This document shows, in pieces, positions 24,591 through 40,764 of a stretch of DNA of 59,847 nucleotides. Origin of the DNA: Patescibacteria group bacterium. GTDB taxonomy: Bacteria; Patescibacteriota; Minisyncoccia; Phycocordibacterales; JACZSL01. Made by a program: the position numbers and the translations under genes. The notes beneath the pieces were generated by a model. That model saw only the letters and a list, made by a program, of their open reading frames with translations. It was not told where the DNA came from and did no database searches. The stretch is taken from contig JADFRL010000001.1 in NCBI GenBank assembly GCA_022561335.1, forward strand, positions 1 through 59,847. Reading direction: 5' to 3'. Numbering within the stretch: position 1 is the stretch's first letter; every line of letters starts with the position of its first letter.

Positions 24591-24661
24591 TGCCGGATCG
24601 TCTAATGGTAGGACACATGCCTCTGGAGCATGGTATCTTGGTTCGAGTCCAAGTCCGGCAG
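24591..24661 (+). tRNA. tRNA-Gln (anticodon CUG)
   Basis: Hand-folded cloverleaf: acceptor UGCCGGA/UCCGGCA (U1-A72, as in bacterial tRNA-Gln), D stem GUCU/GGAC, anticodon arm CAUGC-CUCUGGA-GCAUG, T arm CUUGG-UUCGAGU-CCAAG. No encoded CCA. Confidence 0.9.
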
Positions 24662-24727
24662 CACTTCGACAAGCTCAGTGCAAACTGAGTGGAGAAGTGA
24701 GCTGAATTTATTGAAGCTCATGAGATA
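24644..24727 (+). repeat. Direct repeat R1 (84 nt). Its first 18 nt are the 3' end of tRNA-Gln
   Basis: 81/84 identical to 24982-25065. Contains hairpin CTCAGT-GCAA-ACTGAG. Confidence 0.9.
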
Positions 24728-24980
24728 TTTTGTATATATAATTTTGTGTGAAAACAAAGGTCTCTACACTGGTTTCAGTACCAATGTAGAGAAACGATTT
24801 GCTAAGCACAAAAGAGGTAAGGGTAGTTCGTATACGCAAGCAAATAAAGCATTGAAGATCGTATATACAGAAGAGTTTTCAACTAAAGGAGAAGCTTTGA
24901 GTCGAGAAGCTCAAATTAAAAGGTGGAGGAGAGAAAAGAAACTGAATCTCATACAATTCGGAAAACTAAAAATTTCATAA
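24720..24980 (+). CDS. GIY-YIG nuclease superfamily protein (small stand-alone UPF0213/COG2827-like)
   Basis: YFVYIILCENKGLYTGFSTNVEKRFAKH (GIY..YTG), later REAQIKRW. The ATG lies within the last 8 nt of R1 and the stop is 1 nt before R2. Confidence 0.8.
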   Translation: MRYFVYIILCENKGLYTGFSTNVEKRFAKHKRGKGSSYTQANKALKIVYTEEFSTKGEALSREAQIKRWRREKKLNLIQFGKLKIS

Positions 24981-24981
24981 C

Positions 24982-25065
24982 CGAGTCCAAGTCCGGCAGC
25001 ACTTCGACAAGCTCAGTGCAAGCTGAGTAGAGAAGTGAGCTGAATTTATTGAAGCTCTTGAGATA
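24982..25065 (+). repeat. Direct repeat R2 (84 nt), starts with a second copy of the tRNA-Gln 3' end
   Basis: See R1. The triplet matching the GIY-YIG ATG is TTG here, followed by TAG two codons later. Confidence 0.9.
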
Positions 25066-25142
25066 GGTTCGGAGTACGAAGAGCATCGAAACCTACGAGT
25101 TCTATTCCGAAATAGCATACCTGCTGAGTGCAGTACCAGAAA

Positions 25143-25175
25143 GAAAAATCACTAAAGTGGAGTGATTTTTCTTTT
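25143..25175 (+). terminator. Intrinsic terminator (11-bp stem GAAAAATCACT/AGTGATTTTTC + TTTT)
   Basis: Read directly. Downstream of tRNA-Gln/R2. Confidence 0.6.
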
Positions 25176-25207
25176 ACTCTCCTAAATTAATTTAGGAGAG
25201 TTTTATT
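25176..25207 (+). terminator. Perfect 26-nt palindrome ACTCTCCTAAATT/AATTTAGGAGAGT followed by TTTTATT (second terminator or operator)
   Basis: Read directly. Located 60 nt upstream of the ABC ATPase start. Confidence 0.45.
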
Positions 25208-25267
25208 GACCCAAAGACTATGTTGTACTTTTTGTTAAATTTCCCTTACTCACGTATACTTATAGAC

Positions 25268-25990
25268 ATGTTAGAAATCAAAAATCTTACAAAAACATTT
25301 GACGAACTAAAGGCGGTGGACGATGTGAGTGTTACCATCAAGAAAGGTGAAATTTTTTCCCTCATTGGTCCCAATGGTTCTGGAAAGACCACTATTATTA
25401 AAGTAATTGCAGGACTGCTTCAACCAACCGGAGGAGAGGTGGTAGTGTATGGATCAAATATCTCCGAAGACCCTATCAAATCGAAGTCCCAGATCGGGTA
25501 TATTCCTGATGAACCCACGGTGTGGTCATCAATGACAGGTGAAGAATTCCTTCATTTCACGGGCGCCTTGTTTGGTATTTCAAACGAAGCGCGGGCGAAA
25601 AAAATTTCAGAACTCCTATCACTTTTCAAGCTTGAAGGAATAGAGAAGAATTACTTTGAAAATTACTCACGAGGAAACAAGCAAAAATTTACTATCATTG
25701 CAGCTCTCCTTCACTCGCCTAAGATTCTTCTTATTGACGAACCGATTGTCGGACTTGATCCGCATAGCGCTGAAATAGCAAAAAATACGTTTCGAGAATT
25801 TGCAAACGATGGAGGGCTTATTCTTATGGCAACCCACACTCTCACTGTGGCAGAAGAAATTTCCGACCGCATAGGAGTACTCAAACAGGGAGTATTGATT
25901 GAGAGTGGAACTTTCGAGTATTTAAAGGGCGTTTCAAAACTTGAAGGAGGGGCAACGCTTGAGCAGGTTTACAACGCCCTTGTTGTCTAA
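25268..25990 (+). CDS. ABC transporter ATP-binding protein
   Basis: Walker A GPNGSGKTT, signature YSRGNKQKFTIIAALL (degenerate), Walker B LLIDEPIVGLD. The ATG at 25268 (MLEIKNL) is preferred. Confidence 0.85.
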   Translation: MLEIKNLTKTFDELKAVDDVSVTIKKGEIFSLIGPNGSGKTTIIKVIAGLLQPTGGEVVVYGSNISEDPIKSKSQIGYIPDEPTVWSSMTGEEFLHFTGALFGISNEARAKKISELLSLFKLEGIEKNYFENYSRGNKQKFTIIAALLHSPKILLIDEPIVGLDPHSAEIAKNTFREFANDGGLILMATHTLTVAEEISDRIGVLKQGVLIESGTFEYLKGVSKLEGGATLEQVYNALVV

Positions 25991-25994
25991 ATAT

Positions 25995-27680
25995 ATGACA
26001 GAGCTCCTTTTACAATATTATCGAAATAGATTTACTCGATATTTTCAAAATCAAAAACTCGCAAAACTTATAACAGTCTTTCTGTTTCTCTCAATTTTCG
26101 GCGCTCTTTCCGTCGGGATATATTTTTTTGTAAGAGGAGGACTTCTGTTCACTGTGAACACTCCTTATTTTAAAGATGTCCTCCCTTTATTTCTGTATGA
26201 AATGTTTCTCCTTATCATTGGGTTCCTTGTCATCTTGAGCGCAAGCATCACGGCATTGTATAGCCTTTTCAAACGTGAGAATAACGAATGGGTTATTGCA
26301 TCACCTCGGTTCCACACTGTCCCAACCTATACGGCTTACAGAGTATTTCTCTCTTCACTCTGGCCGTTTGTTCTCATTGCACTCCCTACTCTTTTAGCAA
26401 TGAATACGGTCTTTGGTATTGGGTTATGGAATATAATTGTCGCACTTGTCGCAATACTATTTTTTGTTGCATTTCTTGTATTCGGAACAATGTTCACGAT
26501 TATTATTATTGCATACATTCTCTCCAAAATTAAAATATCAAAAAAGAGTGTTCTTTCATTTTCTCGTCTTGCAGCCACCTGTCTTATTCTTGTTACATTA
26601 CTTGCCGCATTTAGCTGGAACCAAGCATTAGGGGGTGACATTATCGCACTTTTCCAAGCAGATGACCTAACTCAAGAGATAGCAACAATAGGCCCCATTG
26701 CTGAGAGATTTAAAGTCTTCCCGTCTGATCCGCTTGCAACCCTCCTTTTTCAAATACAAACAAAAAGTAACGAGAGCACCCTGGCGCTTCTTGGAGAGAT
26801 TGTTGCACTACTTATTATAAGTATGCTGCTCTTTACGTGGTCAAAAAAATTCTATTTGTCTCTCTGGCAGAAACTTCAGGAAAATAGTTTTGTTGCCAAA
26901 TCGCGAACGACGGGGAGAGTTCCTAAAAGCAGCTTTATACGATTTTTTAAAAGCCCTCTTTCGGCAATATATACGAAAGAGTGGCTTATAATGACGCGAA
27001 ACATTCGCAATGCGATGTGGCTCTTCTTTCTTATGATGCTTCTTTTCATTCAGACAGGATTAAACTTTGTGATGGGAAAAAACATCGCTGTGCATCAACT
27101 TAATATCGAATTATTCCCTAGTATTGTGCAAATTCTTCAGTATGCCACTATTGCTTACTTTATCAGCGCTTTTGTTATTCGTTTTGCACTCCCCTCATTT
27201 AGTACCGAACGCAAAACAGCCTGGATTCTCGCAAGTGCACCTATCGATATAGCAAAGATGTTCTGGTCAAAGTTTTGGTTTTTTAATATAATCTTTCTCG
27301 TTCTCGGCTTCGCCACTTTATTTGTAAACTTTTTTTTCCTTCATCTCAATATCGGCTCAGCCGGTTTTCTGTTTTTCCTCTCATCCATCTCAATTATTTT
27401 TATTACGACACTTGGTCTAAGCCTCGGCGCGATTTTCCCCAATTTCAACACCGATGACCCGCAGGTAATTGCCACGTCATTTCCGGGACTTATTTTTATT
27501 TCCCTCTCGCTTTCATACGGCGCGCTTGGTGCTTATCTTTTCAACGTCACTCTTATTAAAGGAGTATTGTTCCCTCTTTTCAGTTTTATGGTTATTTCAC
27601 TTCTTGTCATTGCTTTCATGCTCTACATTTCTCCGCGTTCCTTGCACCACACTGAGTTCGTTCGAAAATTTACTCGTTGA
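25995..27680 (+). CDS. Polytopic membrane protein, putative ABC exporter permease partner
   Basis: About 560 aa with 12 or more hydrophobic helices. The ATG at 25995 is 5 nt after the ATPase stop. Confidence 0.55.
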   Translation: MTELLLQYYRNRFTRYFQNQKLAKLITVFLFLSIFGALSVGIYFFVRGGLLFTVNTPYFKDVLPLFLYEMFLLIIGFLVILSASITALYSLFKRENNEWVIASPRFHTVPTYTAYRVFLSSLWPFVLIALPTLLAMNTVFGIGLWNIIVALVAILFFVAFLVFGTMFTIIIIAYILSKIKISKKSVLSFSRLAATCLILVTLLAAFSWNQALGGDIIALFQADDLTQEIATIGPIAERFKVFPSDPLATLLFQIQTKSNESTLALLGEIVALLIISMLLFTWSKKFYLSLWQKLQENSFVAKSRTTGRVPKSSFIRFFKSPLSAIYTKEWLIMTRNIRNAMWLFFLMMLLFIQTGLNFVMGKNIAVHQLNIELFPSIVQILQYATIAYFISAFVIRFALPSFSTERKTAWILASAPIDIAKMFWSKFWFFNIIFLVLGFATLFVNFFFLHLNIGSAGFLFFLSSISIIFITTLGLSLGAIFPNFNTDDPQVIATSFPGLIFISLSLSYGALGAYLFNVTLIKGVLFPLFSFMVISLLVIAFMLYISPRSLHHTEFVRKFTR

Positions 27681-27918
27681 AAATATAGAGATACAACTGT
27701 CTCAATTTGATATACTGAAATTACCTGAAATACCCCTCAACGGCTTGCCCAAGTTTGGTTGTAGACCGTGGGTGCCAGAGAGCTTGTGACAGTGACCGTG
27801 ATGAGTCAACACAGCGATATTTTTAATGAGTCAAGTAATCGAGTCCTTGTTCGAGCATGCTATTCAATCGCACGAAATGCGTCGTAATTACAACATCTCG
27901 CTGTAATACAATTAACTT

Positions 27919-29298
27919 ATGGATGAACAAGAGCAACAAAATGAAGCTCAAGAGGAACAGAATGTTCAGATGGAACCAGCTCCACTATCTCCACCCCCTT
28001 CACATACGAAGCTGATAGTCGGCATTGTATTTTTACTTATTGCAGGAATCGCTGGGGCATATTTATTGTTACAACCCAAATCAGAGCCAGTTGATGATAT
28101 TCAAGTGGAAGTATCAGACCAGAATAAACCACCAAAAGGGGAAGAAATTGCACCGACAGTAAATTTAGATATAAAAAATGTAGAAAACGAAATAGATCGA
28201 GTACTAGGACCCTTACTTACACGTTACTATCCTCCTGACGGTTCAACGATATATGTATTGAGATGGACGAATAAAGGAATTGATTTGTTTAACCTTACAA
28301 CTGGACAGGAAAAGATTATAGGTAAGTATGTTACAAAAGGGAGAGTCCCTATTTTTATTATTGAAAATAATGGGCTCTTCTCACCACCGTATATTGTTGT
28401 AAGAAATGAGGAGAACAATGGAATTTTTCGGTATGACATAAAGATGGAAGAGCTGGAGGAACTCATACCTCCTCCAGATGAAGATAAGGCCGAAAGATCT
28501 GTGTACAGTTTTTTAGACGATGACAATAAACTTCTGGTTTCAGAATATCTACCACTACTAGGCATGGAGCAGTCGCTTGATGTTTCTGATTATCTTATTA
28601 ACGTAGTCTCAGGTGTAGTAACAAAATATGAAAATGGGTTTTTCTCGGAAAGACCTCGATGTGGGTATGAGTACTATGACTCAAAACACCAACGTTTTTT
28701 CGATTTTCTTTGTGGTGAAGGAATAGGAAGTTTTGATTTTCCACTCATTGAAGTATCCACAATTGATGGAAGCGAATATATAGTATACGAAAGCTCTTTT
28801 GAGGATGGTGACTATATTGGTAAAAGAGATGGCCTGCTGTTTATTTTTGATTATGATAAGAGTTCTATAGTTATAGTAGACCCACGTAAACTTGAGTCAG
28901 AGATAACTATTTATGAAAATATTTACGATTTTGTTAAATTACCAAGGTGTGGCCAGAGACGTTGGTCTTCTGTACCACTGTTTCTACCTGAAGATAATAT
29001 AATGATTTTATCTGATTCCGATTCGATTTCTTTTCTTTCATTTGATAAAAATAATAGATTACAAAATCATAATTGCATTTTTATAGCCCCCGAAAAATAT
29101 AATATCAATGTAAGATCCTTGTTCTTGTATGACAATCATTTATATTTTCAAATAAGTTTGTCTACCCGAAGAGATGGACAGCGTGTGGGGTCCTATGGCG
29201 GTTATCGTTACCCAGCGGATCAGTGGAAAGAGTATATTACAATTCTTAATCTAGATACCTATAAAACAGTTGGCTCAATACTTATTCAAGAATATTAG
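27919..29298 (+). CDS. Hypothetical membrane-anchored protein (459 aa)
   Basis: Gln/Glu-rich N-terminus, one TM (LIVGIVFLLIAGIAGAYLLL), large Tyr/Asp/Phe-rich extracytoplasmic part. No recognisable domain. Confidence 0.5.
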   Translation: MDEQEQQNEAQEEQNVQMEPAPLSPPPSHTKLIVGIVFLLIAGIAGAYLLLQPKSEPVDDIQVEVSDQNKPPKGEEIAPTVNLDIKNVENEIDRVLGPLLTRYYPPDGSTIYVLRWTNKGIDLFNLTTGQEKIIGKYVTKGRVPIFIIENNGLFSPPYIVVRNEENNGIFRYDIKMEELEELIPPPDEDKAERSVYSFLDDDNKLLVSEYLPLLGMEQSLDVSDYLINVVSGVVTKYENGFFSERPRCGYEYYDSKHQRFFDFLCGEGIGSFDFPLIEVSTIDGSEYIVYESSFEDGDYIGKRDGLLFIFDYDKSSIVIVDPRKLESEITIYENIYDFVKLPRCGQRRWSSVPLFLPEDNIMILSDSDSISFLSFDKNNRLQNHNCIFIAPEKYNINVRSLFLYDNHLYFQISLSTRRDGQRVGSYGGYRYPADQWKEYITILNLDTYKTVGSILIQEY

Positions 29299-29489
29299 CT
29301 TTTTTTTGGAATCCAAAGGCTATTAATTTGGTAATTTAATATCTGGGAATCTAAGGTTAAATCTGTGAAGGAAAGTGGGATAGCTATTATTTATAATATG
29401 CTCGAAGAGCGTCGTTTTGATAAAATAAAATCATTGAAAATAACCTTACAGGACTTGACCGTCCACCGTTCTAGCTCGAGAAGGTCAGC

Positions 29490-29539
29490 ATCGTAATATG
29501 AAAAGCCTCAACGTTAATTGGGGTTTTTCATGTTACGAT
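29490..29539. repeat. 15-bp inverted repeat hairpin (ATCGTAATATGAAAA ... TTTTCATGTTACGAT, one G-U)
   Basis: Read directly. The loop is 20 nt. Confidence 0.7.
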
Positions 29540-29665
29540 AGTATGGTGGAGGGACTCGAACAAGCGGAGGTGCGCGCCTTGGAGGCGACAGAGCACCGAG
29601 CTGTGGCCAAGCGCACTTAGTTGAATTGGAGCGGAACGAACAATTATACTTAGTGACGGGTGACT

Positions 29666-29684
29666 CGAGTCCAAGTCCGGCAGC
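29666..29684 (+). repeat. Orphan copy of the tRNA-Gln 3' end (T-loop C to discriminator+1), not part of a foldable tRNA
   Basis: Exact 19-mer match to 24644-24662. The upstream sequence cannot form the T stem. Confidence 0.85.
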
Positions 29685-35744: not shown

Positions 35745-36002
35745 ATCGCGACCGTTCTATGTGAGTCTGGTGCTCTGATTGGAACGGGGATCAAAAACTC
35801 TTAATCTTCCCTATCTAAAACCAAATCAATAATTTGATCCTTAAGCTGACCCCTGGTCATCGCTAGATTTTAACACAAAACAATACCTATGGCGTTTGCA
35901 CAGCGGACCCAGAACACTCATTTCATAAGTGAACGGGCAAGCAGGACTCGGGGTCAAGTTTCTAAACTCGCTTTACTCGTCAAGACCCCCCCGGCCTCGC
36001 AG

Positions 36003-36755
36003 TCACAGAGCGACATCGCTCCGGCCTTTGAGTGTCGGCGCTCGTATCGAGCTTCCCTCAAGCGTAGGATGATTGAGCAATAGAGCTGCTCGATGACTTA
36101 CCCAGCCTTCAAAATCAATAAGCATAAGCTCAACTGAAGCGAGATTTGCACAAGATTCTATTCGCTTTAAATCACCAACAATTAATGCGACATTATTATA
36201 AGAACCAACCTTCCACGATGTACCTGTCATGTAGACACCTGCAATACTGTTTTTATTCCGATCCAAAAGAAGCAGAAAATATATCATCGGCTTATATTTT
36301 TCTGCACGATGCCACTCAATGTACGTGCCATCATAATGCATTACATTTTCAAGATCTATCGTCTCAGCTTTGACTGTAATATATGGTGAGGATATTTGAT
36401 TTAAAAAACTTCTTCCTTTATACGTCGCTAACACTTGCAGTGTCACCCCTTCCGCAACACTGGGTGAAAATGAATAAATAAGAGGGTTTTTGTATGGATG
36501 TAGATCAATCGGAGTTTTTTGTGCGTGTTCATTCTCTACCTTAGACGTTCCGATTGATTTGAGCCTATGGTATGCATGCTTATGGGAGGGAGTAAAAATA
36601 ATTTTGAGCGTACCGTCTGATTCATGCAGTCCACAGGCAATAACTTCATTGTTTGCATATATATTAATGAAGTATCGCGGCACGAAACCAAAAACACGCA
36701 CCATCCAGTCCATATTCCACACCAAAAACTTATAGAACGCCTTTCTCAGTTTCAT
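36003..36755 (-). CDS. Hypothetical protein (250 aa)
   Basis: Long ORF with no recognisable domain. The last ~27 codons run into a GC-rich stretch. Confidence 0.45.
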   Translation of the reverse strand: MKLRKAFYKFLVWNMDWMVRVFGFVPRYFINIYANNEVIACGLHESDGTLKIIFTPSHKHAYHRLKSIGTSKVENEHAQKTPIDLHPYKNPLIYSFSPSVAEGVTLQVLATYKGRSFLNQISSPYITVKAETIDLENVMHYDGTYIEWHRAEKYKPMIYFLLLLDRNKNSIAGVYMTGTSWKVGSYNNVALIVGDLKRIESCANLASVELMLIDFEGWVSHRAALLLNHPTLEGSSIRAPTLKGRSDVAL

Positions 36756-37133: not shown

Positions 37134-37233
37134 ACATGCACAGTATAACAAAGTCTTTGATTTCAAAGTAGCAAATTTCTCAGCCTGCAAGAAACTAAAA
37201 ATAACCAGGAGATACCTGACTGCTTTCAGTTTT

Positions 37234-37432
37234 GCGCGGCGGACGGGACTCGGTCACGAGTCACTAAATATTCTACCGCGCTGTGCTTGTAGAATATTAA
37301 GTGCTCTCGACCCCGACTCAGCCCTCCCTCGTCCCCCGGACGCGGGCTTCTGTCTTTCGAGTCCCGTCTTCTACCACAATAGAAAGTAAAATCACCCAGA
37401 AAAATATCTGGGTAATTTTACTTCTGCGCGGC
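37234..37432 (-). repeat. Repeat X: tRNA-Asp 3'-end core (37234-37252) + ~173-nt element + 7-nt partial core
   Basis: Near-identical to 38812-39010. Differences are confined to one hairpin plus 2 nt. Confidence 0.9.
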
Positions 37433-37509
37433 ATCGTGGGCGATGTTAGAACTATTTTCATAAATAAAGGTGACGCTGTTGTGTACTTTCCAGAGATAGG
37501 GGTTATATA

Positions 37510-37561
37510 AAAAGGAAACCGCCCGACCAAGAGAGCCGAGGCGGTCTCTTTGGTGGGCGGT
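37510..37561 (-). terminator. Imperfect GC-rich hairpin followed by TTCCTTTTT on the minus strand, after the 361-aa gene
   Basis: ACCGCCC..AAGAGA / TCTCTT..GGGCGGT arms, 11 nt after the stop. Confidence 0.5.
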
Positions 37562-37571
37562 AGGTAAGCTG

Positions 37572-38657
37572 TTATGCCGCAGCACTTAGCTCGGCAATTC
37601 TTTGAAGGACCTCTGCACGATTGGAGACTCGGTAGAGCTTCTTGAGAGTACCCACCGTTGTAGCATTGGCGAGAGTCTTGGTATACGCACTCTTCCCAAC
37701 TGCGCTACCTAACTCCCCTAGGCGTCGAGCTGCGCTTAGCACATCCAGAAGTCGCTCAAAGGTGTCAGCTTGTTCAAGCTCCTTTGCGAGAAGTTCAAGC
37801 TCCTTTTCAAGGAAGCGGTGACGTATCTCTTTAGCGAGCTTTTGTTCCTCTTTGTCTCGCCATAGAGATTTGTAATCAAGGCGAGATGCTTCCTCCAAAG
37901 AGGAGACCAATTCGGCAAGCCTTTGGAAAAGTAGTTTTCCATCGATTTGCCCATCGAGCTTCTCTACATCATTGAAAGTCTGTGCTTGAGCAAGAGCTTG
38001 CTCGGAAAGTTCGCGGCGTTTCTGCGACAAAATCTCTGCAGCTTGTCCTTCGAGGTATGCTCCCAACAAAGTTTGAACGTCCTTGAGTGTTTCAATCTTG
38101 CTGCACCAACCAATGAGCCCCTCGCTACAGTCGCAAAACAATGGGGCGTATCGGTAATCGCTGTGAATGCGAAGTGCTTCTTTCAACGAAGGTGCGTTCC
38201 TCGTCGCCTCAATCGCCACCTTGTGCAAGTGGGCCCGCGCAGCTTCTTCCTCGATACTGCGATATTGGCAGTAGTCTCGGACCTTGCCCCACAAGTGCGT
38301 TGCATCATCCAAGGTTTTTGCAAGGGAAACAACTTTCTCTAGTGCTTCCTTACGTATACTTGCGTGTCCGAATGCCCACTCAATGATGAAGTGGGCGTCA
38401 GCGTACGTGCTGGCTAACCTCACTTTCTCCAAAATGATTTTGCGGAGTTTTGATTTGGCCGCTGCATACAACTCCTCATTTCTGGCTCGTTCAGAGTGCC
38501 CAGAAGCCCAGCCATGAATCGAGCTGACTTCCTCAATAGTCTCGACTACCCTGAGAAGCTCCAAATCAATAGGAATGCCAAGGTCCTCGGCTATGAGGTC
38601 GATGCGGGAATCCATTTCCCGCGACAGCTTCAAAGCCATTAGTGCGGATTTGCTCAT
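37572..38657 (-). CDS. Hypothetical all-alpha protein (361 aa), GC-rich
   Basis: GGAGGA SD, own promoter-like TATAAT (minus strand, about 38.73 kb) and own terminator. Ala/Leu/Glu-rich helical-repeat character. Confidence 0.55.
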   Translation of the reverse strand: MSKSALMALKLSREMDSRIDLIAEDLGIPIDLELLRVVETIEEVSSIHGWASGHSERARNEELYAAAKSKLRKIILEKVRLASTYADAHFIIEWAFGHASIRKEALEKVVSLAKTLDDATHLWGKVRDYCQYRSIEEEAARAHLHKVAIEATRNAPSLKEALRIHSDYRYAPLFCDCSEGLIGWCSKIETLKDVQTLLGAYLEGQAAEILSQKRRELSEQALAQAQTFNDVEKLDGQIDGKLLFQRLAELVSSLEEASRLDYKSLWRDKEEQKLAKEIRHRFLEKELELLAKELEQADTFERLLDVLSAARRLGELGSAVGKSAYTKTLANATTVGTLKKLYRVSNRAEVLQRIAELSAAA

Positions 38658-38775
38658 TTCATCCTCCGTGGTCTATATGACGTCTGGGACAATCATATAC
38701 TTTCACATAGGTTTTGTCATTTGAAAGCAAAAATTATTATACTAAAGTTTCAGTTCCAACGTCCCGTGAGTATAC

Positions 38776-38802
38776 ACAAAAGAACCTTACGTAGTAAGGC
38801 TC
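38776..38802 (-). terminator. Hairpin GAGCCUUAC-UAC-GUAAGGUUC + UUUUGU on the minus strand
   Basis: Immediately downstream (minus sense) of the second tRNA-Asp core copy. Confidence 0.5.
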
Positions 38803-38811
38803 TTTTCGCAA

Positions 38812-39010
38812 GCGCGGCGGACGGGACTCGGTCACGAGTCACTAAGTATTTTAGTTCGCTTTGCTTCTAAAATACTAAGTGCTCTCGACCCCGACTCAGC
38901 CCTCCCTCGTCCCCCGGACGCGGGCTTCTGTCTTTCGAGTCCCGTCTTCTACCACAATAGAAAGTAAAATCACCCAGAAAAATATCTGGGTGATTTTACT
39001 TTTGCGCGGC
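38812..39010 (-). repeat. Repeat Y: second tRNA-Asp 3'-end core (38812-38830) + ~173-nt element, abutting the real tRNA-Asp
   Basis: See repeat X. Confidence 0.9.
38961..39002 (-). terminator. Perfect 18-bp hairpin directly after tRNA-Asp (AAAGTAAAATCACCCAGA-N6-TCTGGGTGATTTTACTTT)
   Basis: Read directly. The copy in repeat X (37383-37424) has 2 mismatches. Confidence 0.5.
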
Positions 39011-39078
39011 GGACGGGACTCGAACCCGCAACTTCTGCCGTGACAGGGCAGTGCTCTATCCAATTGAACTACCGCCGC
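39005..39078 (-). tRNA. tRNA-Asp (anticodon GUC)
   Basis: GCGGCGG acceptor, anticodon arm CUGCC-CUGUCAC-GGCAG, T arm GCGGG-UUCGAGU-CCCGU. No encoded CCA. Confidence 0.9.
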
Positions 39079-39141
39079 ATTTTTATATTATACAGAAATA
39101 ACGTTATTAATCACGTAATTAATGACGTTATTTCAATCATG

Positions 39142-39215
39142 TGCCGGGAGTGAGAATTGAACTCACGACCTCAGGTTTATGAGTCCTGTGCTCTAACCAA
39201 CTGAGCTACCCCGGC
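39142..39215 (-). tRNA. tRNA with CAU anticodon (elongator Met, or Ile2 if lysidine-modified)
   Basis: GCCGGGG acceptor, GCUC/GAGC D stem, loop CUCAUAA, T arm GUGAG-UUCAAUU-CUCAC. A31-A39 mismatch noted. Confidence 0.8.
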
Positions 39216-39677: not shown

Positions 39678-40244
39678 TTAACGAGAAATTGATATCTCCG
39701 TGGAATTCTCTGATTCACAAGCCCGTACGTGGAGAATTCCTGTGGTTTCGCGCTCCAATGTATAACCTGTACCTTCCTCACCTGCCGTATCTCCATCATC
39801 CCAAGTTACTGCACCAGTCGGGCTAATTGGTATAGAACCAAGGTATCCCTCGGTTATCATACCGGACAGGTTTACACAATCTGTGTCTCCCGTGACATTT
39901 GTATCACAACTTGCGTTATTGTCGTCACATCCAGCCACCATGCTTGCACCGTTTACAATCATATAGACATTTCCTGCTGTCATACTTGAGATTGTAGAGA
40001 GGTATGAGCCACCGTTATCTACTTGGTCAATTTTAATGGCAGAAAGAACAGCGGTAACATCAGACCAACGCGACGAGTCACGTGCATCTTGAAACCGCTT
40101 TAATGGGTCAAGGGCCACAAAAACAACAGACGCCAATATTGCTATAATAGCCATCACAATAAGAAGCTCAATGAGTGTAAACCCAGCCCTTCTCTTCTTC
40201 ACATCAAAAGAAACGCTGGGTAAGCTGCCCCACCTTTTTCCCAT
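39678..40244 (-). CDS. Type IV pilin-like protein
   Basis: Prepilin motif AGFTLIELLIVMAIIAILASVV. Paralogue of the next gene. Confidence 0.75.
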   Translation of the reverse strand: MGKRWGSLPSVSFDVKKRRAGFTLIELLIVMAIIAILASVVFVALDPLKRFQDARDSSRWSDVTAVLSAIKIDQVDNGGSYLSTISSMTAGNVYMIVNGASMVAGCDDNNASCDTNVTGDTDCVNLSGMITEGYLGSIPISPTGAVTWDDGDTAGEEGTGYTLERETTGILHVRACESENSTEISISR

Positions 40245-40272
40245 AATAACGTTACTAGTTAATTACAGAACT

Positions 40273-40764
40273 CTACCTGGTGATAAATATAGCTCCGCTC
40301 CCTTCCGCATCACAAGCGCCTACTTCAACAAAACCATCACTTGATTTGTAAAGATAATAGTCGGTTTCCGCAGCTGTTCCTGTACTAGGATCGACTGGAA
40401 TGCTCCCTATATAACCTTCTGTCACTAAGCCGGAGAGATCCAAGCAAGCCGCAAGAGTTGTTGTGGCCGTGCAACCAGAATCACACCCAGATACAGCAGT
40501 ACCAAGCTGATGGGTTCCGTCGGCAGCACCGTTAAGAGCAGAAATATAGGTTCCACCATTATCTACTTGATCAACTATAATTGCTCCAACCATCGATGAA
40601 ACGTCTTGCCAACGAGTTGCGTCCCTTGCATCTTGAAAGCGTGTTAATGGATCAAGGGCCACAAAGACAACGGCTGCCAAAATGGCAATAATAGCAATAA
40701 CAATCAAAAGCTCGATCAGGGTAAACCCTCTGTTCGTATTATTCTTTATTTTGTCAAGATTCAT
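40273..40764 (-). CDS. Type IV pilin (probable major subunit of set A)
   Basis: RGFTLIELLIVIAIIAILAAVVFVALDP. 163 aa. Confidence 0.8.
   Translation of the reverse strand: MNLDKIKNNTNRGFTLIELLIVIAIIAILAAVVFVALDPLTRFQDARDATRWQDVSSMVGAIIVDQVDNGGTYISALNGAADGTHQLGTAVSGCDSGCTATTTLAACLDLSGLVTEGYIGSIPVDPSTGTAAETDYYLYKSSDGFVEVGACDAEGSGAIFITR

Follow-up and report, generated by a model that had tools for sequence, protein, structure and literature searches.

Two direct repeats of 199 nt each, X (37234-37432) and Y (38812-39010), lie in the window, by which we mean the whole 59,847-nt stretch of DNA analysed here. They are 94% identical, and nine of the 11 nucleotides that differ between them fall inside one hairpin (Table 1), which raises the question of what this hairpin does and what kind of repeat carries it. 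The original prediction was that the helix is under selection for its structure while its sequence diverges, as would be expected of a specificity determinant. The clustering of the differences exceeds chance: the binomial probability of finding at least nine of 11 differences in the 42-nt hairpin is 3e-5, and for the 34-nt variable part it is 5e-6. On the plus strand the arms read AATATTCTAC/GTAGAATATT in X and AGTATTTTAG/CTAAAATACT in Y, giving a stem of 10 bp and a loop of 12 nt. Comparison of the arms confirmed that their six differences make up three compensatory pairs, that the other three hairpin differences sit in the 12-nt loop, and that both copies retain the outer CACT/AGTG pairs as well as the A.A mismatch, which on the minus strand is U.U. 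The count of nine also stood, while the placing of the other two differences together in a terminal hairpin did not: one is in the stem of an upstream hairpin, P0, and the other just outside it. The reported hairpin is not a stand-alone structure but the distal part of a stem, P3, in a three-way-junction element that we call E.

E reads on the minus strand, in the same sense as the neighbouring tRNA-Asp gene. Taken in that sense, each repeat consists of P0, the strand GUGGUAG, a guide GACGGGACUCG, a branched body and a 19-nt segment S, CGAGUCCCGUCCGCCGCGC, which equals the last 19 nt of tRNA-Asp, beginning at T-loop position 56. S is the pairing partner of the guide. ARAGORN reported no tRNA or tmRNA in X or Y, and the 19-nt 3' segment is all that they have in common with the tRNA. 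Both repeats are predicted to fold at -99 kcal/mol with z about -9, far below shuffled sequences. When tRNA-Asp, Y and the second copy of S (S2) were folded together, the body of the tRNA paired with the distal copy, leaving the 3' part of the tRNA to pair with the guide, so that the unit resembles an insertion of ~190 nt in the T-loop; two near-equivalent folds were obtained. Copy X and the orphan gene ORF361 lie downstream of the resident copy Y, and the G+C content of the cargo between the copies is 0.49-0.53, against about 0.40. ORF361 belongs to no Pfam, PADLOC or PHROG family, has no match to PF01548 or PF02371 at E <= 0.1, and has no relatives in a word search of 5.8 billion proteins or a full HMMER search; no further contigs encoding it were found. 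Its single-sequence AlphaFold model is all-helical with a pLDDT of 55, too poor for a fold search.

Table 1. Positions of E, its parts and associated features in the window
Feature	Position	Strand	Remark
tRNA-Asp(GTC), host gene	39004-39078	-	ARAGORN; Rfam tRNA 66 bits
S copy 1, within tRNA-Asp	39004-39022	-	
P0 of copy Y	38962-39001	-	long AU-rich hairpin directly after tRNA; folds
E, copy Y	38831-38955	-	CM R1 106.6 bits; fold z = -9.2
Acceptor-like strand GUGGUAG, copy Y	38949-38955	-	
Guide GACGGGACUCG, copy Y	38936-38946	-	
P2, copy Y	38890-38932	-	
P3 5' base GUCGAGAGCACU, copy Y	38878-38889	-	
Variable P3 tip, copy Y	38844-38877	-	
Reported hairpin, equivalent in copy Y	38840-38881	-	
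P3 3' base AGUGACUCGUGAC, copy Y	38831-38843	-	
S copy 2 (S2)	38812-38830	-	19 nt; tRNA-Asp 3' end duplicate right behind ...GUGAC of Y
Strain-specific cargo	37433-38811	-	1379 nt (~1.4 kb); bounded by 7-nt GCCGCGC
Promoter-like site in cargo	38720->38692	-	
Orphan ORF361	37572-38657	-	361 aa, co-oriented; in cargo
Terminator in cargo	37540->37522	-	
P0 of copy X	37384-37423	-	one U/C difference from Y in stem
E, copy X	37253-37377	-	CM R1 101.4 bits; fold z = -9.1; matches Y except variable P3 tip
Reported hairpin, copy X	37262-37303	-	CACU/AGUG pairs, U.U mismatch, variable P3 tip 37266-37299
X/Y differing sites (X numbering)	37268, 37273, 37276, 37277, 37278, 37283, 37289, 37292, 37297, 37414, 37424		
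S copy 3, behind copy X	37234-37252	-	
Native-looking terminator after S copy 3	37221->37203	-	
E4, degenerate fourth copy	35942-36034	-	CM 17 bits, E-value 0.026; weak; P2 intact, P3 short
E3, third family member	29551-29684	+	CM 66.8 bits (match 29554-29673); variant P3 base
TCGAGTCCAAGTCCGGCAGC after E3	29665-29684	+	20 nt; identical to tRNA-Gln 3' end (24643-24662)
Small GIY-YIG protein in tRNA-Gln block	24711-24980	+	
tRNA-Gln(CTG)	24591-24662	+	4.9 kb upstream of E3

E is a conserved three-way junction of ~120 nt with P1, the guide paired with the sequence following GUGAC, as its closing helix. P2 contains an internal loop of the form GNC / GGAG...CGA / GNC; it runs through GNC, GGAG/GCAG, a variable hairpin, CGA/UGA and GNC, and is followed by a GGG junction; P3 has an invariant base and runs from GUC-GAG-AG-CACU-U through the variable tip to U-AGUG-A-CUC-GU-GAC. 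In 58 distinct metagenome copies, 91.8% of the cells were paired against 74% in shuffles, double-sided changes numbered 321 against 115, and the covariation score was 0.43 against 0.13, a value of 0.43 being reached by 0 of 500 shuffles. Slid controls scored 0.05-0.10, 4-10 times lower than observed. An independent set of 87 genome copies gave 0.465 against 0.136, and its divergent members carry compensatory changes even in the 'invariant' base of P3. Double-sided changes occur at most pairs of the variable P3 stem as well (for example UA 33 and AU 22 at one pair). Covariation thus strongly supports every helix of E. Further copies were thus gathered, as had been proposed, and with covariation measured against shuffles the claim that the hairpin helix is selected for pairing rather than sequence held in both sets.

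The isolated non-Watson-Crick pairs in 132 distinct tips are distributed asymmetrically. Read on the tRNA-sense strand, they comprise 36 GA, 16 GG and 24 GU, against 11 AC/CA and 2 UC. Since G.A, G.G and G.U outnumber A.C and pyrimidine pairs on the tRNA-sense strand, that strand is the one that folds. The option of a DNA cruciform, which would be symmetric, is disfavoured by this asymmetry, which indicates a single-stranded fold and fits either RNA or a single-stranded lagging-strand template. The loop of P0 is a conserved CUGC in 53 of 128 distinct copies; that of the copies in the window is different.

To find further members we scanned for the invariant hairpin flanks, GTCGAGAGCACT and AGTGACTCGTGAC separated by N25-50, as exact matches. 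The pattern occurred in at least 75 metagenome loci and in at least 75 loci of species-representative genomes, often several per genome, and a covariance model (R1) built from the metagenome copies retrieved 87 copies from the genome loci at E <= 1e-8. Every named genome locus belongs to a Patescibacteria/CPR MAG, the hosts including Paceibacteria/Parcubacteria, Kaiser-, Lloyd- and Campbellbacteria, 'Saccharibacteria' and Peribacteria. A genome scan demanding the tRNA-Asp-specific closing helix gave 0 matches. Rfam 15 returned tRNAs and no E family at gathering score, and at E <= 10 over 37150-39150 only chance matches to the P0 hairpin overlapped the element. Pattern scans of IMG/VR gave 0 matches, blastn of the repeat against phage and plasmid records gave none, and literature searches by sequence strings and by topic turned up nothing on the motif. 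The family is probably broader than exact-pattern scans reveal. If E is undescribed, as these searches suggest, it is a widespread, strongly covarying CPR element missing from Rfam. Two further modules were seen beside or within such loci: a CUGUAAG-loop hairpin that precedes a tRNA 3' fragment, downstream of E (L051, L053 and L048/L086), and an E-like copy (L042, 5939-6204) that has the same P0, guide and P2 and a longer, unrelated P3 domain.

E is closely linked to the 3' ends of genes. A co-oriented tRNA or tmRNA lies at most 300 nt upstream in 52 of the 75 metagenome loci and within 90 nt for about 60 of 94 covariance-model matches in the genome loci, and the spacing behind it is 30-130 nt in about two-thirds of copies. 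The tRNAs are of essentially any isotype, and the protein genes rplK and rpsI also serve as hosts. The junction is always GUGAC followed directly by S, and S2 is a copy of the host gene's 3' end. In tRNA hosts, S starts at position 56 (class B) or at position 74 (class A); in a class A example (L084) ...GAGAGCA followed by CAAAAGCGU in one place compares with GUGAC followed by CAAAAGCGU in the other. In class B copies, P0 lies between the acceptor-like and the T-stem-like strands. Reverse complementarity between the guide and the gene-proximal copy extends for up to 24 nt and takes in bases past the tRNA end, and the match of the distal copy, S2, often ends abruptly after 6-11 nt. Behind rplK (L090), each of two tandem units is followed by another copy of the last ~55 nt of the gene, terminator included, and the end of rpsI is duplicated in two loci (L078 and L095). 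The two rpsI ends of L095, UCAAAACGCUAA and UCGAAAAGAUAA, both encode S-K-R-stop, by UCA AAA CGC UAA in one and UCG AAA AGA UAA in the other. Because they differ by synonymous codons, one copy is a diverged homologue, and one of the two was probably derived from another genome.

The locus is polymorphic among related strains. Three contigs that span it entirely (L008, L012 and L168) have one Y-type copy and lack the cargo and X, and in three that cover it in part (L169, L171 and L174) a Y-type copy is joined directly to the flank that follows X. Five related strains have only the Y-type copy. Since the Y copy of related strains runs straight into the flank of X, the cargo and X are a strain-specific indel. 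Across the family, cargo between host gene and E ranges from zero to about 5 kb; it always shares the orientation of E, and its proteins are heterogeneous. A co-oriented Fic-domain gene, for instance, lies between two copies of E in L127. Whole units also occur in tandem, three of 143 nt in L083 (AACY023299194, 346-691) and two of 200 nt after rplK in L090 (3430-3744), and these units include the repeated host-gene end. The direct 3'-end repeats expected of a tRNA island are present in the window, as three 19-nt copies for tRNA-Asp and two 20-nt copies, 4.9 kb apart, for tRNA-Gln; no tyrosine or serine recombinase was recognised in the element. The 570 neighbour ORFs of E loci fell into 391 clusters, the largest of which look like housekeeping genes, and neither clustering nor a crude motif search revealed a recombinase, transposase, reverse transcriptase or nuclease that recurs near E. 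Pfam analysis of the 148 nearest cluster representatives placed no such enzyme among the 25 most populous families listed. Neither excised or circular forms nor an empty tRNA site was seen, and no allele without any E was found.

These observations are best accounted for, with a probability that we put at about 0.45, by an insertion element that is non-autonomous, is directed at the 3' ends of genes and needs an enzyme acting in trans, with E as its cis-acting, folded recognition module. E would then be a site-specific 'miniature cassette' without a recombinase of its own; like a tRNA-integrating island, it would displace the 3' end of its target gene and put another in its place. Its fold could form in read-through RNA or in the single-stranded DNA of a lagging-strand template; the guide:S helix (P1) would stack beside the invariant base of P3 at the exact junction between GUGAC and S, and the stacked fold would be the recognition or attachment structure for the trans-acting enzyme. 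The tip of P3 would be a peripheral stem in which only pairing matters. Several findings count against an insertion element: no recombinase, transposase, reverse transcriptase or nuclease was seen to recur next to E, no circles and no empty tRNA site were seen, searches of viral contigs and of phage and plasmid records gave no match, and terminator-like hairpins often stand between the host gene and E. A classical integrase, moreover, does not explain one family with an invariant core and more than 20 different targets, and the recurrence of certain host tRNAs (Lys-CUU, Arg-GCG, Phe and tmRNA) could equally mean that the copies are old, vertically inherited functional RNAs. If E is undescribed, it also shows a recurrent route by which these reduced genomes gain single accessory genes (Fic, orphan ORFs) behind tRNA genes with no visible integrase.

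Among the known systems close to E are tRNA-integrating elements, which leave partial tRNAs at their flanks and stack in tandem (10.1101/2020.12.28.424599). Like tRNA/tmRNA-integrating islands of the T-loop and 3'-end sublocation classes, such as the tycheposons of Prochlorococcus (10.1101/2020.12.28.424599), E would insert in the 3' part of tRNA and tmRNA genes. As in those islands, a replacement 3' end would be supplied, a partial tRNA copy marks the distal border, units stack in tandem, and the accessory cargo is co-oriented or island-like. Unlike them, E has no integrase inside or adjoining it, most copies are gene-free, and what forms the distal end is a single-strand fold, conserved and covarying, that includes a target-complementary strand; and whereas each tycheposon integrase is specific for a tRNA, the E family uses more than 20 targets, protein genes included.

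Integron attC sites and CALIN arrays, with co-oriented single-gene cassettes, and the attP of phage CTX, a folded single-stranded DNA site, offer another comparison. E resembles them in that its structure is conserved while the terminal part of a hairpin varies, in having bulged bases near the crossover point and a stem that mimics a duplex target, and, as in CALINs, in arrays without an adjacent integrase whose co-oriented cassettes lie between structured sites. However, E lacks the R''/R' boxes of attC (RYYYAAC / GTTRRRY, with crossover between G and TT), has GUGAC followed by C at the junction in all copies, and differs from attC in its highly conserved core sequence, its three-way junction and an outer helix specific to the target gene; nor was a link to IntI or Xer, or any integrase among its neighbours, found. 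The bridge (seek) RNAs of IS110/IS1111 and the omega RNAs of TnpB/IscB are encoded beside their own recombinase or nuclease gene. Like these, E is a structured, non-coding end module with a sequence matched to the flanking target, a feature suggestive of programmable targeting; unlike them, it has no recombinase or nuclease gene beside it, its guide pairs in cis with the target copy, and the target 3' end is duplicated. The adjacent DEDD/Tnp ORF of about 330-460 aa that would mark an IS110 element was not found, most copies of E being without an ORF.

REP/BIME, Correia, RUP, ERIC and MITEs are structured, multi-copy intergenic repeats. E shares with them that it is non-coding, multi-copy, hairpin-forming and located at gene 3' ends, and that its presence differs by strain. 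In contrast to them, it is a complex covarying three-way junction with invariant loops, strictly co-oriented with the host gene; its closing helix is target-specific rather than a fixed terminal inverted repeat, and it duplicates a gene end rather than a short fixed target site. R2, with its 5' ribozyme, is a site-specific retroelement in 28S rDNA that is co-transcribed with the host RNA gene. E may be similar in depending on read-through from a highly expressed RNA gene and in having RNA ends that putatively pair with host-gene sequence, and its stretch complementary to a tRNA 3' end recalls a retroviral primer-binding site. In contrast to R2 and retroviruses, no reverse transcriptase was found near E, and unlike a primer-binding site its complement covers gene and flank instead of the mature CCA-tRNA.

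An alternative that we regard as possible, if unlikely, is that E is a non-mobile non-coding RNA gene of tRNA operons, which would be cut out of the read-through transcript by tRNA-processing enzymes because P1, with its acceptor-like and T-stem-like strands and the copy of the tRNA 3' end, mimics a tRNA minihelix. E would act on the 3' ends of tRNAs, or on another partner, either in cis or in trans, with the P3 tip variable and peripheral. Such a role would suit the extreme conservation of unpaired nucleotides across CPR lineages, the sense of E, which is always that of the upstream, highly expressed gene, and the recurrence of the same tRNA types as hosts. It is also consistent with the class B P0 being located at the acceptor/T-stem junction, as in a tRNA, with the position of E between tRNA-Asp and the terminator in the ancestral single-copy allele, and with the predicted fold linking the tRNA body to the distal 3' copy. 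However, it leaves unexplained the synonymously diverged duplicates of rpsI/rplK 3' ends, the cargo genes between copies, and the second copy at strain level, the tandem arrays and the abrupt truncation of S2; and the guide matches the gene flank, not the mature CCA end.

More speculatively, and on balance rather unlikely, E could be the RNA or folded single-stranded DNA part of an undescribed programmable insertion system of CPR bacteria. Base pairing by the guide would then pick out the 3' end of whichever gene is the target, and the invariant P2/P3 core would recruit a trans-encoded enzyme or itself cut or join between GUGAC and C. By re-supplying the displaced gene end, the element could spread harmlessly, together with its single-gene cargos, behind tRNA, tmRNA and ribosomal-protein genes. 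With a target-complementary strand next to an invariant junction, guide-directed insertion or cleavage is directly testable.

Whichever of these readings of E applies, the variable tip of P3 can be considered on its own. Throughout the family it follows one plan: the stem is AU-rich, there is a U.U mismatch, and the loop region is rich in purines and contains GA. In close pairs it diverges ~2.3 times faster than the upstream 70 nt (0.141 vs 0.062), and near-identical elements can have very different tips (17/36 for L016/L082, 15/34 for L101/L159 and 9/33 for L048/L062). Given this fast divergence and the unrelated P3 domain of L042, P3 is the most plastic module of E. We consider it quite unlikely, all the same, that the tip is a specificity or incompatibility determinant under diversifying selection, with X and Y seen by different partners, a proposal that concerns the hairpin alone and is compatible with the other readings of E. 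The concentration of nine of 11 differences in the hairpin, with every stem change compensatory, would agree with it, as would the like pattern in close pairs from other loci, the faster tip and the entirely different P3 domain of the E-like copy. Yet five strains share one Y-type tip while SNPs occur elsewhere, even in the core, and within each of L127, L090 and L083 the hairpins of co-resident or tandem copies do not differ. The tips form a continuum with no link to tRNA isotype or junction class, a search of the window for complements of the hairpin arms and loops gave only 10-12-mers at chance level, and P1, P2b and P0 are equally free to vary. By itself the hairpin matters less than the element around it: it is a peripheral stem, and its compensatory changes are good evidence of folding, not of a recognition code.

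The nearest to the tip of X among the 132 distinct tips is that of Y (25/34). Together with the identity among five strains and the tips shared by co-resident copies, this argues against a specificity code and marks the X/Y cluster as a single burst confined to one lineage, with little resemblance to general hypermutation or to a difference that neighbours are obliged to have. It could plausibly have come from short-patch conversion between paralogues with the same invariant flanks, or from a mutation in one arm after which intrastrand templated correction altered the other. Under the insertion-element reading, too, the X/Y difference would most simply be a patch in which sequence was exchanged or became fixed rapidly, rather than a specificity code by design. 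A wholesale swap of the tip from an unrelated copy was rejected, the closest tip to X being that of Y, and so was DGR-type mutagenesis, as the substitutions hit all four bases and no reverse transcriptase is nearby.

We also weighed E as a new self-cleaving or self-ligating ribozyme, which we hold to be improbable. P1 would be the substrate helix and the cut would fall between GUGAC and C, freeing unit-length RNAs from read-through or tandem transcripts in the manner of retrozyme or satellite RNAs. The invariant junction and 25 invariant nucleotides point in this direction (this block being the pattern that the scans searched for), as do the conserved purines of junction and internal loop, which resemble ribozyme cores, the programmable helix that starts right at the junction, and the tandem arrays of 143- and 200-nt units. 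On the other hand, there is no similarity to an Rfam ribozyme even at E <= 10, a cut at guide:S1 would destroy the host tRNA, and the cargo and diverged gene-end copies need an extra mechanism.

We think it most improbable that an artefact of assembly or collapse produced the X/Y difference, or that the hairpin is only an intrinsic terminator or a palindrome arisen by chance: contigs of related strains (L170, L172 and L173) do end inside the repeat, as assemblies do at repeats, but both copies sit in unique flanks of one contig, in five independent samples a Y-type tip runs on without a break into the distal flank, the family recurs in at least 150 loci, and the AU-rich hairpin has no U-tract, is absent from the terminator scan calls and lies inside a larger covarying fold, so that the covariation sets and strain contigs contradict both ideas.

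Two more copies of E are present in the window. E3 closes a 4.9-kb block that starts at tRNA-Gln and encodes the GIY-YIG protein, an ABC ATPase, a 579-aa permease-like ORF and a 459-aa ORF. This block (24591-29684) resembles an island, with borders of the same kind as those of the X/Y cassette; a related strain (L165) has the same cargo, and no polymorphism was seen there. E4 overlaps the 3' end of a 250-aa ORF; the tRNA-like fragment in which it ends, CGAGUCCUGCUUGCCCG, has no match among the window's six tRNAs, and older cargo may be represented by ORF138/119 and ORF250.

Two features on the other side of tRNA-Asp were recorded as well. A near-perfect 40-bp palindrome, GAAATAACGTTATTAATCAC/GTAATTAATGACGTTATTTC (39095-39134), lies exactly between tRNA-Met and tRNA-Asp, and its match in Rfam, to a plastid 3'UTR hairpin, is at chance level. 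Upstream of the tRNA pair (39678-40764, minus strand) are two adjoining type IV pilin-like paralogues of 188 and 163 aa, whose DNA is 74% identical over 189 nt; contig L006 has the same pilin gene, followed by different genes.
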